From IMG/VR virus record IMGVR_UViG_3300045391_002372: a DNA stretch of 39,285 nt. The stretch is one strand, 5' to 3'. Of this stretch, positions 2,875 to 31,531 are shown piece by piece. The first letter of the stretch is position 1; each line of letters starts with the position of its first letter. The stretch comes from a virus. The notes under the pieces are model-generated. The model was not told the DNA's origin. It saw nothing but the letters and a program-made list of their open reading frames with translations, and did not search any database. A program made the position numbers and the translations under genes.

Positions 2875-3058
2875 GATAGACCTCGGAGATGCAGCGAAAG
2901 CAACTTTTAGTTTTGATTTTAACCCGACACATTTAACTGAGAAATCAGCGCGTGCGTTACTAAAACTAGTAACCGCCATGCTTTTATTTGGGGAAGAGGC
3001 AGTAGAAAATGGGGATAAGTTTCAAGAGCAACTTCGACCCAAAAAAGATCCTAGCTGA
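2852..3058 (+). CDS. Hypothetical small protein (ORF 2735..3058; internal ATG 2852 preferred to limit overlap with the MuF-like gene)
   Basis: ORF track; start choice is inferential. Confidence 0.35.
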   Translation: MTQAPKIEIDLGDAAKATFSFDFNPTHLTEKSARALLKLVTAMLLFGEEAVENGDKFQEQLRPKKDPS

Positions 3059-3512
3059 TAAATTGGCCAGGGCAAGGGACGCGCTAGATGTGGCACTTCA
3101 GTATGAAGCCACTGAAATTAAGCGCAATATGAGCGCGGGTAAATCTTATGATGGCTCGGCGTTTGCTAAATATAGCAAGGGCTATGAGGACTACAAAAAA
3201 GCGATCGGTCGGAATACTCAAGTCGATCTTACTTTAACCGGCAAGCTACGCGATTCGATTCAACCAAAAGCGGCAAAGATTAATACTAACAATGTAGAGG
3301 GGGGAATCTTTATTGCAAACCTTCCCGGCACTACGCCGCCGAAACGGCCAAGTAAAAGAAAGCGCAGGGCCACAGTGGCGCAGAGGCCAGCAAATACAAT
3401 TGAAAAGGCCCATTTCATACAAGAGGGCAGAGTACCAAGAAAGTTCTTCGGATTATCGAATGATGCAATTAAACGGATAATTAAACGAGTACAAGAGGCA
3501 TTTAATAAATGA
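3009..3512 (+). CDS. Virion morphogenesis protein, Mu gpG-like (167 aa)
   Basis: C-terminal RKFFGLSNDAIKRI resembles the RPFLGLS motif I recall from Mu gpG-type proteins. Position after the MuF-like gene. GAGG lies 8 nt upstream of the ATG. Confidence 0.4.
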   Translation: MGISFKSNFDPKKILADKLARARDALDVALQYEATEIKRNMSAGKSYDGSAFAKYSKGYEDYKKAIGRNTQVDLTLTGKLRDSIQPKAAKINTNNVEGGIFIANLPGTTPPKRPSKRKRRATVAQRPANTIEKAHFIQEGRVPRKFFGLSNDAIKRIIKRVQEAFNK

Positions 3513-4231
3513 CTGAAGAGACAAAACCTGAAGTTAAAACCGTTCCCATTACTGACTTTGAAAAGGAACAGGAAAAGCGCAGGCGCTACGAAGCTGAAAA
3601 CGAAGATCTAAGACGGCAGGTAAAAGAGTTTGGCATGTCACCAAAAGAGGTGCAGGCGCTTCGCTCGCAATATGACGAGATGAAGAAAAACGATGCCGTG
3701 GGAGACCCTAAGAAATTCGAAGAAGAATTAAACCGCCGTATCGCAGATGTTCGGCAATCAGTTCAAAAAGATTTAGACAACAAACAAGAATGGCTATCAA
3801 AGGCGCAAGCGAGAATCAAAGAGCTTGAAGTTACTGACCGCGTTTTCTCGTTAGCCGCAAATAAGTTTAATGACGATACCCATGATGACGTTAAAAGCCT
3901 GATTCGTAAGTTCGGAGACCTCTCCGAAGATGGCTCGATTATATTCAAAGATGAAACAGGTAAGCCACGTTACGCGCCGGGGTCAACGACACAATTAATG
4001 AAACCTGAACAGTTTGTTGAATGGGTAAAGGAAATCAAACCTTCATGGGCTAAGCCTACAGCAATTTCCGGCAGCAAGCAGGAAGGCTCTAAGGTTAACG
4101 GCTCGGCAATGAACGGCAAAACTTACACCGCAGAAATGTTTGCAACAATGAGTCAGAGCGAGATTAATCAGATCGTTAGCTCAGACCCAGTTGCGGCGCG
4201 TGCTTATTTATCAACAGTAAAACTTTCTTAA
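3509..4231 (+). CDS. Scaffolding protein candidate (240 aa, highly charged, coiled-coil-like)
   Basis: K/E/R-rich helical sequence just upstream of the capsid gene; ATGA overlap with the previous ORF. Confidence 0.55.
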   Translation: MTEETKPEVKTVPITDFEKEQEKRRRYEAENEDLRRQVKEFGMSPKEVQALRSQYDEMKKNDAVGDPKKFEEELNRRIADVRQSVQKDLDNKQEWLSKAQARIKELEVTDRVFSLAANKFNDDTHDDVKSLIRKFGDLSEDGSIIFKDETGKPRYAPGSTTQLMKPEQFVEWVKEIKPSWAKPTAISGSKQEGSKVNGSAMNGKTYTAEMFATMSQSEINQIVSSDPVAARAYLSTVKLS

Positions 4232-4248
4232 TTTAGGAGATTTTTCAA

Positions 4249-4509
4249 ATGACACAAGAACGAGGATATTTCGAATTTAAGGCAGCATCCGGAGTAGGGG
4301 CGCACGTAATTGCGTTCGACGGTTGCTCCGTTACTAACTTCCACACGCTTTCATGCCGTGGAACTATTAACGATACCTATATGGGCCTTTCGATCAACAG
4401 CGGCGCAACCTTGCCGCCTAGCTATCAATGGAACCCGAACACAAGCTCGGCGTCTCAGACAGCGCAGGTCGTAGCCTATATTCTTATGGTGTTAGGTAAA
4501 CCCCGCTAA
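4249..4509 (+). CDS. Small virion-module protein (86 aa), possible decoration or accessory head protein
   Basis: Strong tttaggag SD at 4232-4239, and its own terminator downstream. Confidence 0.6.
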   Translation: MTQERGYFEFKAASGVGAHVIAFDGCSVTNFHTLSCRGTINDTYMGLSINSGATLPPSYQWNPNTSSASQTAQVVAYILMVLGKPR

Positions 4510-4533
4510 CTTTTACACACATAGCTTTTATCA

Positions 4534-4556
4534 AGCCGCATTACGCGGCTTTTTTA
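4534..4556 (+). terminator. Rho-independent terminator
   Basis: Stem GCCGC (4535-4539) / GCGGC (4545-4549), loop attac, then a T-run. Confidence 0.75.
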
Positions 4557-4582
4557 TTTTTTAATTTAGGAGTTTTAATTTT

Positions 4583-5452
4583 ATGGCAGTTTCAAATATT
4601 ACCGAGGTATCCAATGCGGTTACCATCGGAAACGCGCTTAGCGCGATTGCTTCTCCTGCGCTGGTTAAGTCAACTTGCATGATGAACCTCATGTACACCG
4701 AAAACTTGCCGGTCGGGACCAATGTCAAGAAGTTCATTAAGAAAGGCAGCTTGACAGCCGCTACCTTGGCAGAGTCAACAGCCGCTGCAATTGACGCAAA
4801 CGGAGAGCTGACCGATTCGTCTATCACGGCAACAGCCGCAAAGGTGTTCGTAATGTCAGGGCTTAGCTTGGAAGCTGAGACTTTCACCGGCCTTTCTGTT
4901 GCAAGACTTGGCGAGGAAGCGGGAGCCGCAATTGGGCGCGCCGTTGACGTTGATGCCTTGGGAATGTTCGACGGATTTTCAACCGTTGTGACCGCAAGTA
5001 CAGTGCTCACAATTGACGACGTAATGCTTGGACAGTTTAATATTCTGAATAGCAACTGCCCTAACCCTGAAGTTCAGCTTCAGTGTGTTGTGCATCCGAA
5101 GGCCTACTACAATATCAAAAAGGAGATGATTCAATCCGGTGCTTCCGCATGGGCTAATCAAACCTTCCTTGACGTTTTAGGCCGCAACCCTCAGCAGAAT
5201 TGCTATGCAGGCTCAATCCCTGGCTTAGCTGACTTCTATGTCACGACCGGTCAGGCAACAACTGGCGGCGATACCATCGATGGAATTTTCCATCCAATGT
5301 GGGCGCTTGCTGGAATCTTTGCTTCTGCGCCAGTTGTTTGGGTGCAAAGACAAGGGGCGGGCGGATTCTTCACTGAAGTCGCTAGCGCTTACTTGTACGA
5401 CATTATCGAATGGAATGATCTTGCCGGTGTTGAACTAGATAGCGATACGTAA
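4583..5452 (+). CDS. Major capsid protein (289 aa, HK97-fold-like)
   Basis: Strong SD tttaggag 4565-4572, followed by a strong terminator. Ala/Gly/Thr-rich composition, with size and position after the scaffold. Confidence 0.75.
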   Translation: MAVSNITEVSNAVTIGNALSAIASPALVKSTCMMNLMYTENLPVGTNVKKFIKKGSLTAATLAESTAAAIDANGELTDSSITATAAKVFVMSGLSLEAETFTGLSVARLGEEAGAAIGRAVDVDALGMFDGFSTVVTASTVLTIDDVMLGQFNILNSNCPNPEVQLQCVVHPKAYYNIKKEMIQSGASAWANQTFLDVLGRNPQQNCYAGSIPGLADFYVTTGQATTGGDTIDGIFHPMWALAGIFASAPVVWVQRQGAGGFFTEVASAYLYDIIEWNDLAGVELDSDT

Positions 5453-6625: not shown

Positions 6626-7355
6626 CTTTGGAAAAGACATAGTTCGAACCCTCATTGATTACGAGGAAGGCGAACCGTTTAATCTACCGTCACAGGTTCC
6701 AGCTATTTATTTATATAGCTCGCAGCCTTCGATGTCTGACGCTGTAAATGGTACTGGAGCAATTGGCGGGTCTTATACGCTTAACTACTGGACCGAGATA
6801 GCAAACGTTCCCTATAAGCGAAACTACACTTTCCCAGCTATCCCAGACCCAAGCCCTACAAGCGGCACTAATACGCGCGGCTATTGGGAAGTTTTAAGGT
6901 TCGTTAGAAAAACAGGCGGCCAGACTCAAACTATTATCAGACAGTTTGACGTTGAACGCGGCGCTCAAGGGGATTCTTACCCTGAAATTAACACACAAGT
7001 TTTAAAAGATATTTTTCCTGGAATTGTAAGTTACGCAACCGATGCACAGTTAGAAGGGTTTATCGATATTGCTGTAGAGGAGGTGAAACTAGACATCTTA
7101 GCCAAAGGGCATAAGTGGGAGAGGCTTTTTGAACTTGGTAAAATTAAGCTCGCAATTGCCTATCAAACTGTTGCCAATATCGCTTTAAGCCAAGTTAAAG
7201 AAGATGGCGATAGGTTTTTTCTTCGCTACAAAGAATTTCAAACGCGCTACGAGCGCATGATTAACTCGTTAGAGTTACCCGTAGATACAAACGGCGACAA
7301 TATCCCAGACGCTACCGCACAAGTTAAGCCTAGCTATGCATTTATAACTAGATGA
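6618..7355 (+). CDS. Head-tail joining or head completion protein candidate (245 aa)
   Basis: Position between the capsid and tail genes only. Confidence 0.4.
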   Translation: MFNFGKDIVRTLIDYEEGEPFNLPSQVPAIYLYSSQPSMSDAVNGTGAIGGSYTLNYWTEIANVPYKRNYTFPAIPDPSPTSGTNTRGYWEVLRFVRKTGGQTQTIIRQFDVERGAQGDSYPEINTQVLKDIFPGIVSYATDAQLEGFIDIAVEEVKLDILAKGHKWERLFELGKIKLAIAYQTVANIALSQVKEDGDRFFLRYKEFQTRYERMINSLELPVDTNGDNIPDATAQVKPSYAFITR

Positions 7356-24962: not shown

Positions 24963-25011
24963 TTGCAACCCTATACCGAATATTATAATCTCAGACATAC
25001 AGAGATTGCAA
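24963..25011. promoter_or_regulatory. Overlapping divergent sigma70-like promoters sharing a palindromic -10 (TTGCAA-N13-ATTATAAT-N16-TTGCAA)
   Basis: Plus strand: TTGCAA 24963-68 and TATAAT 24984-89. Minus strand: TTGCAA (complement of 25006-11) and TATAAT (complement of 24982-87). The spacers, 15 and 18 nt, are non-optimal. Confidence 0.4.
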
Positions 25012-25042
25012 TACAATCCCTGCAAGGTAGAATGGAGACGAA

Positions 25043-26832: not shown

Positions 26833-26840
26833 AGGTTAAG

Positions 26841-27044
26841 CGGCTCTGAATGAATTGTCTAAAGACGGTTGATTCAGGGCCGACTCGAAATCGGCTGGGT
26901 TGCTGACAGGCGGGTGCGAAGGGGTTCGGGTTCGATTCCCGATGATTTGCAGGTTTGGGGGAGATCCTCAAACTAACCTTGGAGGTAGAGCACCGGACTT
27001 GCCCACCGGTTAAAGCATCGGTTAACCCCGATGTGAAGGGCTGC
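26841..27044 (+). ncRNA. ORF-free structured region with tRNA-like modules (not a complete tRNA)
   Basis: Hairpins read by eye: 26841-26882 (11 bp plus a 5-bp extension), 26879-26895 (5-bp stem, 7-nt loop CTCGAAA), 26926-26942 (TCGGG TTCGATT CCCGA, a canonical T-arm), 26953-26973 (8 bp), 26992-27010, and 27016-27033 (6 bp). Confidence 0.3.
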
Positions 27045-27117
27045 GGTTCCTTAGCTCAGTTAGTTAGAGCGCCCGCCTGAAGAGCGGGAGATCCTGGGGC
27101 GGAACCAGGGGGAACCA
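27045..27117 (+). tRNA. tRNA-Phe(GAA)-like gene with non-canonical D-loop and T-loop; no encoded CCA
   Basis: Manual cloverleaf. Acceptor GGTTCCT/GGGAACC (7 bp, one G-U), U8 A9, D-arm GCTC-AGTTAGTTA-GAGC. Anticodon arm CCCGC-CTGAAGA-GCGGG, variable AGAT, T-arm CCTGG-GGCGGAA-CCAGG, discriminator A. Confidence 0.6.
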
Positions 27118-30237: not shown

Positions 30238-30593
30238 AAACACTCACCGATGACAACGGGCGACACCATTTCGCAGCTACCGAAAAGGAAAGCTTTTACT
30301 ATGAAAAATCCATGATCGAGCAAGGGTTGGGGCGCTGCATCGGGATGAGCACGCACGGGCGGGTAATTGAATATTACGACCGGCTAGAAAAGCTCACGCC
30401 GATCGCATGGAAACGCTACGAGTGGATCGAGCCAGACGGTGAGCGCAAGGGCGGGAAGATTGCAACGTTTGGGCGCATTGACGACATCGACGATGCGAGG
30501 AGAGCACTTCAGTTTTATAAAGATCGCGGCCAATTTTACGGCGGGAATTTCTTACCCGAAACGGCAGCGCATTTTCAGGATGGGGAGTTGTGA
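30234..30593 (+). CDS. Hypothetical protein (119 aa), translationally coupled to the ligase gene
   Basis: ATGA overlap upstream and GTGA overlap downstream. Confidence 0.55.
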   Translation: MKTLTDDNGRHHFAATEKESFYYEKSMIEQGLGRCIGMSTHGRVIEYYDRLEKLTPIAWKRYEWIEPDGERKGGKIATFGRIDDIDDARRALQFYKDRGQFYGGNFLPETAAHFQDGEL

Positions 30594-31531
30594 GCGAAGA
30601 ATTACCGATAACTACCAGTTGGCACAGCTACCCGAAGCTCTTTGCGCTTGGGCAATCGATCATAGCTAAAATCTTTATGGATCCCGTGACGGTCGAAGAA
30701 AAGATCGATGGCTCACAATTTTCATGGGGCATTTTTGGCGGCGAGCTTAAATGCCGATCTAAAGGCGCTGTTTTAAATATTCTAGCACCTGAAAAAATGT
30801 TTATGGCTGCGGTCGATACAGCGAAGCGATTAGCCGAAGCCGGTTCATTAAAAGAGGGCTGGACCTACCGCGCGGAATATTTAGCGAAGCCAAAGCACAA
30901 CACGCTGGCCTATGAACGAATCCCGCGACAGCACTTAATCGGCTTTGATATCAATACGGGTCATGAACATTACATGAGCCATGAAGAAAAGGCTGCGGAG
31001 TTTGACCGCCTCGGCCTTGATTGTGTCCCGCTGCTTCATTTTGGAGTGGTCGAATCGCACGCGATGTTTAGATCCTTTCTAGATAAGATCTCAATTCTTG
31101 GCGCCCAAAAAATCGAAGGTGTTGTAGTGAAAAACTATTCACGCTTCGGGCCTGACGGTAAAGCCATGATGGGCAAATTTGTCTCGGAGGAATTTAAAGA
31201 AGTTCACGGAGCGGACTGGAAAGAACGCAATCCGGAACAAAACGACATAATCCTTAAAATCGTAAACGAATATAAAACGCCCGCTAGATGGCGCAAGGCA
31301 ATTCAACACGCGAAGGAAGCCGGAAAACTTGAAAATTCCCCACGTGATATTTCATTACTGCTTAAAGAGATTGGCATTGATACACACGCGGAATGCGCGG
31401 GGGAAATAAAAGACAAAATATTTTCTTGGGCATGGCCGAAGATTGCTCGCGGAATAAGCATGGGTTTTCCTGAGTGGTACAAAGAGGAGCTTTTAAAGAG
31501 CGCATTCAATGACGAAGCAAGAGGAGAGTAG
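30590..31531 (+). CDS. ATP-dependent ligase of the covalent nucleotidyltransferase superfamily, RNA-ligase-like (313 aa)
   Basis: Motif I EEKIDGSQ (KxDG), motif III-like YRAEYL, motif IV EGVVVKN, motif V-like GKFVSEEF, in the correct order and spacing. Confidence 0.6.
   Translation: MSEELPITTSWHSYPKLFALGQSIIAKIFMDPVTVEEKIDGSQFSWGIFGGELKCRSKGAVLNILAPEKMFMAAVDTAKRLAEAGSLKEGWTYRAEYLAKPKHNTLAYERIPRQHLIGFDINTGHEHYMSHEEKAAEFDRLGLDCVPLLHFGVVESHAMFRSFLDKISILGAQKIEGVVVKNYSRFGPDGKAMMGKFVSEEFKEVHGADWKERNPEQNDIILKIVNEYKTPARWRKAIQHAKEAGKLENSPRDISLLLKEIGIDTHAECAGEIKDKIFSWAWPKIARGISMGFPEWYKEELLKSAFNDEARGE

Follow-up and report, generated by a model that had tools for sequence, protein, structure and literature searches.

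Does a transfer RNA gene in which the most conserved tertiary-contact residues have been replaced still specify a working tRNA? The question is raised by the 39,285-bp genome of a virus in the IMG/VR collection (record IMGVR_UViG_3300045391_002372), which carries a single gene resembling tRNA-Phe(GAA) with an altered elbow, the corner of the molecule at which the D loop and the T loop make contact. We refer to this whole stretch of DNA as the window. An earlier note on it had left three readings of the gene: a decaying pseudogene, a functional tRNA whose elbow and anticodon loop have been remodelled, or a tRNA mimic. It had also pointed to an RNA-ligase-like gene in the same genome. Comparative evidence from sequences led us to favor the second reading. 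With a probability of roughly 0.7, the gene specifies a functioning elongator tRNA-Phe(GAA), one of a recurrent class of tRNAs, most of them carried by phages, with an alternative elbow. The pseudogene and the link to the RNA ligase were not supported, and the mimic retains a small share of the probability.

ARAGORN called only one tRNA gene in the window, a tRNA-Phe with anticodon GAA. Infernal aligned this gene with the full Rfam tRNA model RF00005 (model positions 1-71) at 49.8 bits, compared with a gathering score of 29 (E = 7.2e-08 for the window), and this was the only above-threshold Rfam match in the window. The gene and its three loops are located as follows.

27045-27117, + strand: tRNA-Phe(GAA) gene, 73 nt, CCA not encoded, member of the variant-elbow class
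27058-27066, + strand: D loop AGUUAGUUA, read as A14 G15 U16 U17 A18 G19 U20 U20a A21 from the sequence and the covariance-model alignment
27077-27083, + strand: anticodon loop CUGAAGA, with GAA at 27079-27081 and G37 at 27082
27098-27104, + strand: T loop GGCGGAA, read as G54 G55 C56 G57 G58 A59 A60 in place of UUCRANY, with C56 retained

The layout of the RNA is GGUUCCU-UA-GCUC-AGUUAGUUA-GAGC-G-CCCGC-CUGAAGA-GCGGG-AGAU-CCUGG-GGCGGAA-CCAGG-GGGAACC-A. All 21 pairs of the acceptor (GGUUCCU/GGGAACC), D (GCUC/GAGC), anticodon (CCCGC/GCGGG) and T (CCUGG/CCAGG) stems are intact, and U8, A9 and the discriminator A73 (27117) are present. The minimum-energy and centroid structures from RNAfold are both the exact cloverleaf (-32.3 kcal/mol, z = -2.4). 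The cloverleaf that the earlier note had drawn by hand, including U8/A9 and discriminator A, was thus recovered by ARAGORN, by the covariance model and by folding. Acceptor pair 7 is the wobble U7-G66. With a length of only 4 nt (AGAU), the variable loop places G15:U48 where G15:C48 is usual, and the gene is followed by the 3' trailer AAAUUU with no encoded CCA. The Logan contig L234 (run SRR8549365), which was assembled independently, matches the window at 1,910 of 1,910 bases, the tRNA included, indicating that the tRNA sequence is not an assembly artefact.

G18, T54, pseudouridine 55 (Psi55) and A58 are textbook tRNA invariants. The corresponding canonical elbow set of RF00005 (G18, U54, U55 and A58) is absent from the window tRNA, which has A18 (27062) instead of the near-universal G18, followed by a retained G19 (27063), and G54, G55 and G58 in the T loop. 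The two loop replacements that had been noticed from the sequence, AG where GG is expected and GGCGGAA for TTCRANY, are therefore genuine features of this gene, as is G37. Bacterial tRNA-Phe usually has A37, a substrate for formation of N6-isopentenyladenosine (i6A) or its 2-methylthio derivative (ms2i6A), and in this respect the window gene departs from a bacterial elongator tRNA-Phe. The identity set of phenylalanyl-tRNA synthetase (PheRS) includes GAA and A73 and, in Escherichia coli, U20. The window tRNA has all three: anticodon GAA, A73, and U20 in the D loop.

The altered elbow is not peculiar to this gene. The exact T arm of the window tRNA, CCTGGGGCGGAACCAGG, was present in two other viral contigs (L005 and L003), within tRNA-shaped genes that ARAGORN misses. 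Two sequence patterns were used to collect further examples from viral contigs. The first, TAGCTCAG-N30-60-GGGGCGGAACC, constrains the D arm at positions 8-15 only and returned 22 loci, approximately 19 of which are tRNAs (Phe, Asn, Ile, Val, Lys, Pro, Ala and Met/CAU). The second, CTGAAGA-N12-14-GGGGCGGAACC, leaves the D arm unconstrained and returned 30 further loci, approximately 25 of them tRNA-Phe(GAA) with G37. After removal of duplicates and of chance coding matches (L002, L004, L006, L011, L016-like, L022, L216, L221, L224, L225 and L228), there were 36 distinct sequences, including the window, that could be placed in register over 74 columns (alignment A1). The identical GGCGGAA T loop is found in at least 35 other distinct phage tRNAs with ten different anticodons, and also at more than 100 loci in cellular DNA.

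We define the class by a T loop G54-G55-C56-G57-G58-A59-A60 closed by G53:C61, with A18-G19 in the D loop and the G19:C56 pair kept. The window tRNA has the G53:C61-closed T loop, A18-G19 and identity elements that match its anticodon. A18 and G19, which neither pattern selected, are each more than 90% conserved in the class, G19:C56 is kept in 33 of 36 members, and most members encode CCA. Approximately 25 phage tRNA-Phe(GAA) genes (L203-L231; for example L204:2289-2361, and L212 and L223 on the minus strand) make up a G37/A8 clade with A8 instead of U8, an A13-A22 mismatch, C15 and often G48, that is, a reversed Levitt pair. ARAGORN misses every member of this clade, with the result that large phage tRNA arrays seem to be without tRNA-Phe; it also misses L003, L005, L009, L010, L013-L015, L018 and L023. 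Among cultured phages, blastn searches with two class members returned only canonical-elbow tRNA-Phe genes or no match.

Some variant-elbow genes have additional peculiarities. C33 replaces the near-universal U33 in L005 (minus strand, near 7273), L015:5660, L017:1242, L018 (minus strand) and L024 (minus strand), and the loops with C33 are CCGAUAA, GCCAUAU and UCGACAA. The tRNA-shaped element at L003:4431-4541 (+ strand), which has the same D-stem halves as the window tRNA and a T arm identical to it at 17 of 17 positions, carries in its D loop an insert of about 40 nt with a hairpin of its own and an Ile-type loop, CUGAUAA; its main anticodon loop is CGAUUAA. This element, not called by ARAGORN, could be an intron-like insertion, a set of nested tRNA pieces or a pseudogene.

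If the class consists of functional tRNAs, then changes on one side of a stem should be compensated on the other. We made this test across the class, in place of a comparison of syntenic relatives of the phage. With the cloverleaf, G19:C56 and 15:48 imposed on alignment A1, 95.9% of cells were paired, compared with 61.3% in column shuffles (0 of 500 reached the observed value) and 30-43% when the partners were slid by 1-3 columns. Double-sided changes were seen in 267 cells, versus 76 in shuffles, and the covariation score was 0.843 versus 0.167. These changes occurred at every one of the seven acceptor and five anticodon-stem pairs, and at the three T-stem pairs that the patterns did not select. 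Anticodon, discriminator and pair 3:70 are also mutually consistent: both Ala members (CGC and GGC) have G3:U70, both Asn members have G73, and A73 is present in every Phe, Val, Ile, Lys, Pro and CAU member.

Positions 18 and 55 change together. In the first set of viral loci, ARAGORN called 109 tRNAs; of these, 80 combine U55 with GG and one combines it with AG, and 15 combine G55 with AG and two combine it with GG (Fisher p = 1.2e-14). Other T loops with G55 (UGCGAGU, UGCAAUU, AGCGCUA and others) likewise go with A18, so the core covariation is a change of 18:55 from G:U to A:G, and GGCGGAA is its commonest form.

A larger set of viral loci, with arrays of 10-22 tRNA genes, contained 288 canonical, 55 variant and 28 other elbows. 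No canonical tRNA-Phe was present, within the stretch examined, in the array loci that had been chosen for a variant tRNA-Phe; there, it is the variant gene that fills the Phe position of the array.

The representation of amino acids among variant elbows was uneven in these biased loci. Of the tRNAs that ARAGORN called in them, the variant form accounted for 6/12 Cys, 6/19 Met, 6/19 Asn, 4/11 Tyr and 4/14 His genes, and for 0/34 Arg, 0/11 Ser and 0/14 Pro genes, so that there may be an identity bias. ARAGORN also called tRNAs with a CUA anticodon ('Pyl', amber-reading) in arrays L020, L023 and L231, and these may be suppressor tRNAs.

Taken together, the stems, the identity elements, the 18:55 coupling and the filling of slots make decay into pseudogenes untenable for the class and point to ordinary decoding as its best reading. 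Yeast SUP4oc tolerates no single mutation in any of the pairs G18-U55, G19-C56 and U54-A58 (PMC4117946). For this reason the concerted replacement is notable, and it suggests a distinct structural solution rather than drift.

Decay of the window gene itself was considered in view of the sequence just upstream.

26833-27044, + strand: ORF-free structured spacer upstream of the tRNA (ORF, open reading frame; fold z = -3.3)

Within this 212-nt spacer are, besides a long hairpin at 26841-26882, a hairpin of the anticodon type (GCCGA-CUCGAAA-UCGGC), a T arm of the canonical kind (UCGGG-UUCGAUU-CCCGA) and a 16-mer, GGUAGAGCACCGGACU, identical to the D/anticodon arm of the canonical tRNA-Phe of phage BcepSauron. 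The only Rfam signal in it is a weak tRNA-Sec-like match (18.3 bits, 26850-26950). The modules are isolated and no longer form cloverleaves; they are probably relics of two further tRNA genes. The window gene could then be the last and least damaged member of a small cluster, and its G15:U48, its 4-nt variable loop and its lack of CCA could be read as damage. No relatives were found that could show purifying selection at the locus. Against decay, 21 of 21 stem pairs are intact, the covariance score is 49.8 bits and the minimum-energy fold is the cloverleaf. In addition, the 'defects' at 18, 54, 55 and 58 are covarying features shared, in concert, with at least 35 other phage tRNAs that show compensatory changes in their stems, and random decay would not yield GGCGGAA together with A18. 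We consider it very unlikely that the gene is a decaying pseudogene, one of the three readings in the earlier note.

As a working tRNA, the window RNA would probably be transcribed within the early rightward operon of the phage, excised by host RNase P and 3'-end processing, supplied with CCA by the host CCA-adding enzyme, and charged by host PheRS, for which GAA, A73 and U20 are present. The charged tRNA would read UUY codons. At the elbow, the outer stacking pair G19:C56 is retained, with G18-Psi55 giving way to A18 with G55, and T54-A58 to G54 with G58. By our inference, A18 would make contact with G55, and a G54-G58 pair would take over from the reverse-Hoogsteen pair T54-A58. It follows directly from the sequence that, with G54, G55 and G58, the RNA can have no 5-methyluridine at 54, no Psi55 and no 1-methyladenosine at 58. 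A36 followed by G37 likewise precludes the i6A37-type modification of bacterial tRNA-Phe and, given the specificities of MiaA and TrmD, should be a substrate for neither enzyme in the host of this phage. The retained pair, G19:C56, is the flat outer face that serves as a stacking surface for RNase P, the CCA-adding enzyme, the ribosome and T-box leaders (review PMC4810234).

Why would a phage use such an elbow? The reason that we prefer, though only tentatively, is independence from host modification of the T loop and position 37, combined with being a poor substrate for those tRNA-directed nucleases and toxins that recognize the conserved residues; the variant tRNA could sustain Phe decoding when host tRNA-Phe is attacked. 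Substitutions in the anticodon loops of phage tRNAs defeat anticodon nucleases, and tRNAs supplied by phages also save infection from PARIS and retron effectors (PMC10264068, PMC11555353, PMC12409363). In the T loop, the conserved T and Psi flank the site at which the toxin CdiA-CT E479 cuts (PMC9086364). The tRNA-Phe of Klebsiella phage KpS8 (MT178275.1; L233:1496-1571) has the loop UUGAAGA, with G37, on a fully canonical elbow, and the host-type tRNA-Phe of the KpS8 host has A37; G37 in a phage tRNA-Phe is thus not tied to the variant elbow. The literature on escape from nucleases, the toxin acting on the T loop and the G37 of KpS8 make this rationale plausible. About equally possible is that the elbow is a neutral alternative fold that has spread by exchange of tRNA genes among phages.

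The elbow is not confined to phages. More than 120 cellular records carry the same D-arm/T-loop pattern, including an actinomycete family of 93 copies in 86 loci that are built on one scaffold (Streptomyces, Actinomadura, Nocardiopsis, Micromonospora and others). The scaffold has the acceptor CGRCGUG, A18-G19, the GGCGGAA T loop, the anticodon stem CCGGG and the variable loop AGGGC. G73 is present in 90 of the 93 copies, CCA is absent, and there are sometimes 2-4 tandem copies. The anticodon is hypervariable, with 26 triplets including UCA and CUA, and with an entropy of 1.4-1.6 bits at positions 34-36 versus 0.15-0.26 at 32-33. One conserved ORF of about 770 codons lies downstream in 84 of the 86 loci, and its ATG is 1-3 nt past the discriminator in 50 of 58 complete cases, so that a cut at the 3' end of the tRNA-like element would leave a leaderless mRNA. 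Two examples, from loci L028-L147, are given here.

L028:5487-5561, minus strand: actinomycete tRNA-like element, with the conserved ORF at L028:3088-5487
L036:2622-2933: actinomycete tRNA-like region, with the conserved ORF at 2935-5307

The protein of about 770 amino acids had no match in Pfam, NCBIfam, PADLOC, or searches of PDB by sequence or by profile. Its AlphaFold2 model is all-helical and confident, with a predicted local distance difference test score (pLDDT) of 86.5, and the best Foldseek match to PDB had E = 0.58. The idea that a codon column of the ORF tracks the anticodon was rejected, with agreement in at most 14 of 58 cases. From its sequences, this family looks non-decoding.

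Other cellular contigs contain genes of this kind as well. There are tRNA-Pro(GGG)-like genes with a GGCGGAA T loop and an AG-type D loop in L057, L062, L066, L080, L105 and L132, which are contigs of metagenome-assembled genomes (MAGs) of the candidate phyla radiation (CPR/Patescibacteria) and of 'Gammaproteobacteria'. Single variant-elbow tRNAs occur in a Phycisphaerae MAG (L076, Thr-UGU) and in tRNA arrays of Polyangiales (L051, L145).

The actinomycete family gives some weight to the idea that the window RNA does not decode. It could be a tRNA-like RNA that acts as a processing signal separating the messages of the early operon, or that serves some host or phage factor as ligand or decoy; as a mimic, its altered elbow would keep it out of the normal tRNA pathways. 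The window tRNA does sit between the ORFs of an operon, and neither a promoter nor a terminator belonging to it alone was detected; the actinomycete elements, with their hypervariable anticodon, G73, lack of CCA and position 1-3 nt before an ATG, fit a processing or leader role. The phage class differs from them in the mutual consistency of anticodon, discriminator and G3:U70 and in filling the Phe slot of large arrays. In the window tRNA, U33 and a purine at 37 complete a perfect Phe anticodon loop, and the downstream ORF is preceded by a separate 33-nt leader containing a Shine-Dalgarno-like AAAGG, which sets it apart from the actinomycete arrangement. We regard the non-decoding RNA and the mimic, taken jointly, as unlikely.

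The genome around the gene is complete. The ends of the window repeat each other and the large-terminase ORF spans both ends, which identifies it as a complete, circularly assembled genome of about 39.2 kb. Portal, scaffold, neck and small terminase proteins are encoded (PHROGs/Pfam). The early module consists, in order, of a leftward helix-turn-helix (HTH) repressor-like gene, divergent sigma-70-like promoters near 25,000, ORF111, RecT, a Gp157/Gam-like gene and ORF63, followed by the 212-nt spacer, the tRNA, ORF95 and more small ORFs. Two features of this setting bear on the tRNA.

25006-25033, + strand: sigma-70-like promoter TTGCAA-16-TAGAAT, from a consensus scan only, divergent from the repressor-side promoter
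30590-31531, + strand: RNA-ligase-like gene (phrog_548, 6.8e-24; PF09414, 1.5e-11), context only

The promoter is the likely start of an early rightward operon that would comprise ORF111, RecT, Gp157, ORF63, the spacer, the tRNA and the genes from ORF95 onward. The scan detected no terminator-like site between this promoter and the tRNA, so the tRNA would most simply be a processed part of the early transcript. Phe codons in the window are 66% UUU and 34% UUC, and Phe makes up 4.4% of the codons in structural genes; this usage is uninformative without the host.

The repressor-like HTH gene and the divergent promoters suggest a temperate lifestyle, which would suit an integration remnant, either a phage attachment site (attP) or a tRNA fragment captured from a host tRNA gene. 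This explanation is scarcely credible. The tRNA is full length rather than a 3' fragment, there is no integrase among the ORFs tested with PHROGs or Pfam, and many unrelated tRNA arrays of phages have the same elbow.

The RNA ligase was considered as part of a tRNA-repair system acting on the window tRNA, the connection hinted at in the earlier note, and this was rejected. The ligase gene is 3.5 kb downstream and no Pnkp-like partner was detected. Its homologues in two viral contigs of about 33 kb (L200 and L201; 53-56% identity) are each followed, after about 460 nt, by a tRNA-Met with a canonical elbow (L200:4525-4598 and L201:9353-9426), and these contigs share no gene with the window besides the RNA ligase.

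Several points weigh against a working tRNA-Phe. No syntenic relative of the phage was found in the phage, viral, metagenome and protein collections searched. Megablast and blastn of the 25-29 kb region against 50,697 phage records matched only the 5' half of the tRNA, and these matches are canonical tRNA-Asn genes of two Aeromonas phages; a tblastn search of the same records with the portal protein had no match. Viral contigs contained neither a homologue of Gp157 nor the exact 23-mer of the window D arm. The 52 loci recovered with RecT from metagenome and viral contigs have RecT alone in common with the window and none has the tRNA region, although one distant group has a canonical tRNA-Asn after RecT. 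Similarly, three loci recovered with the RNA ligase from viral contigs share the ligase alone. Exact-protein look-ups returned one identical 1.9-kb contig, and the nearest relative of Gp157 among 5.8 billion proteins is 44% identical and encoded on the end of a non-syntenic contig. The phage is of a siphovirus-like lineage that is isolated by these searches.

Other points concern the copy itself and the class. The window tRNA adjoins apparent tRNA relics, which indicates that the local array has been decaying, and its U7-G66 wobble, G15:U48, 4-nt variable loop and missing CCA are oddities relative to the class. The actinomycete family suggests that the elbow is compatible with roles beyond translation. 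The loci were collected by a T-loop search and comprise only parts of contigs, which introduces an ascertainment bias into estimates of prevalence and of slot filling. Finally, evasion of defences, plausible as it is, has as its premise the sequence of the altered T loop and of position 37.

How does the class relate to known systems? Like the canonical phage tRNAs (the T4 and T5 clusters, and the tRNA-Phe of KpS8 and BcepSauron), the window tRNA is a phage-borne elongator with a cloverleaf, A73 and, for Phe, GAA. The KpS8 and BcepSauron genes keep G18-G19 and a UUCGAGU-type T loop, and the window differs from them at 18, 54, 55 and 58. As in phage tRNAs that evade defences (van den Berg et al. 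2023, PMC10264068; Azam et al. 2024, PMC11555353), conserved loop positions are altered, and the G37 of the window fits that pattern; the published changes are in the anticodon loop only, and the text of PMC10264068 mentions neither the T loop nor the elbow. The pyrrolysine tRNA (tRNAPyl) and many metazoan mitochondrial tRNAs (PMC7609411) function without canonical contacts of the D loop with the T loop, as is proposed here. However, their loops are shrunken or missing and G19:C56 is lost, whereas the class has loops of normal size, keeps G19:C56 and has A18, G54, G55 and G58 fixed across identities.

Two other systems are similar in part. Most class members, like the tRNAs of L-arrays (PMC8421152), belong to arrays in which 10-22 tRNA genes are densely packed on mobile or viral DNA, whereas the window has a single tRNA; the main text of PMC8421152 does not mention deviations at G18 or in the T loop. 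The tRNAProX/ProRSx system of Streptomyces and Kitasatospora (PMC10404621; ProRS, prolyl-tRNA synthetase) shares with the actinomycete family a C1:G72 acceptor pair and anticodons that do not match the body of the tRNA. It differs in having A33/A34, A15:A48, A73 and a ProRS paralogue, where the actinomycete family has U33, G73, GGCGGAA and an orphan helical ORF without a synthetase domain.

No description of an A18/G55 or GGCGGAA elbow was found in full-text searches, outside of which most subscription journals lie, or in a review of T-loop modification (PMC7912444), PMC7609411, PMC10264068 or PMC8421152. The occurrence of GGCGGAA in PMC4928997 is the acceptor end of human tRNA-Val and not a T loop. 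Judged from its sequence, the window gene is a tRNA with an alternative elbow that is undescribed within the literature searched. A broader proposal is that A18-G55 with G54-G58 constitutes an elbow without the standard T-loop modifications, used by phages on working elongators of many identities, the window tRNA-Phe among them, that need no host enzymes of T-loop modification and go unseen by host or competitor factors that read G18, T54, Psi55 and A58, and that actinomycetes have co-opted the fold as a non-decoding leader with a hypervariable anticodon that is cut to give a leaderless mRNA for the orphan helical protein of about 770 amino acids. In this full form we consider the proposal rather doubtful.

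For the window itself the result is more modest: it contains one more member of the class. For tRNA biology, a class in which all four invariants are changed while stems, anticodon loops and identity elements are kept would represent a second natural solution to the tRNA corner. Because ARAGORN misses many members, the tRNA repertoires of phages, and analyses of codon supplementation that depend on them, have been undercounted. The class also provides a system for asking who needs the canonical elbow, the candidates being TrmA, TruB, TrmI, RNase P, the CCA-adding enzyme, EF-Tu, the ribosomal L1 stalk and L5, T-box leaders and defence tRNases, and for asking whether phages exploit the difference.

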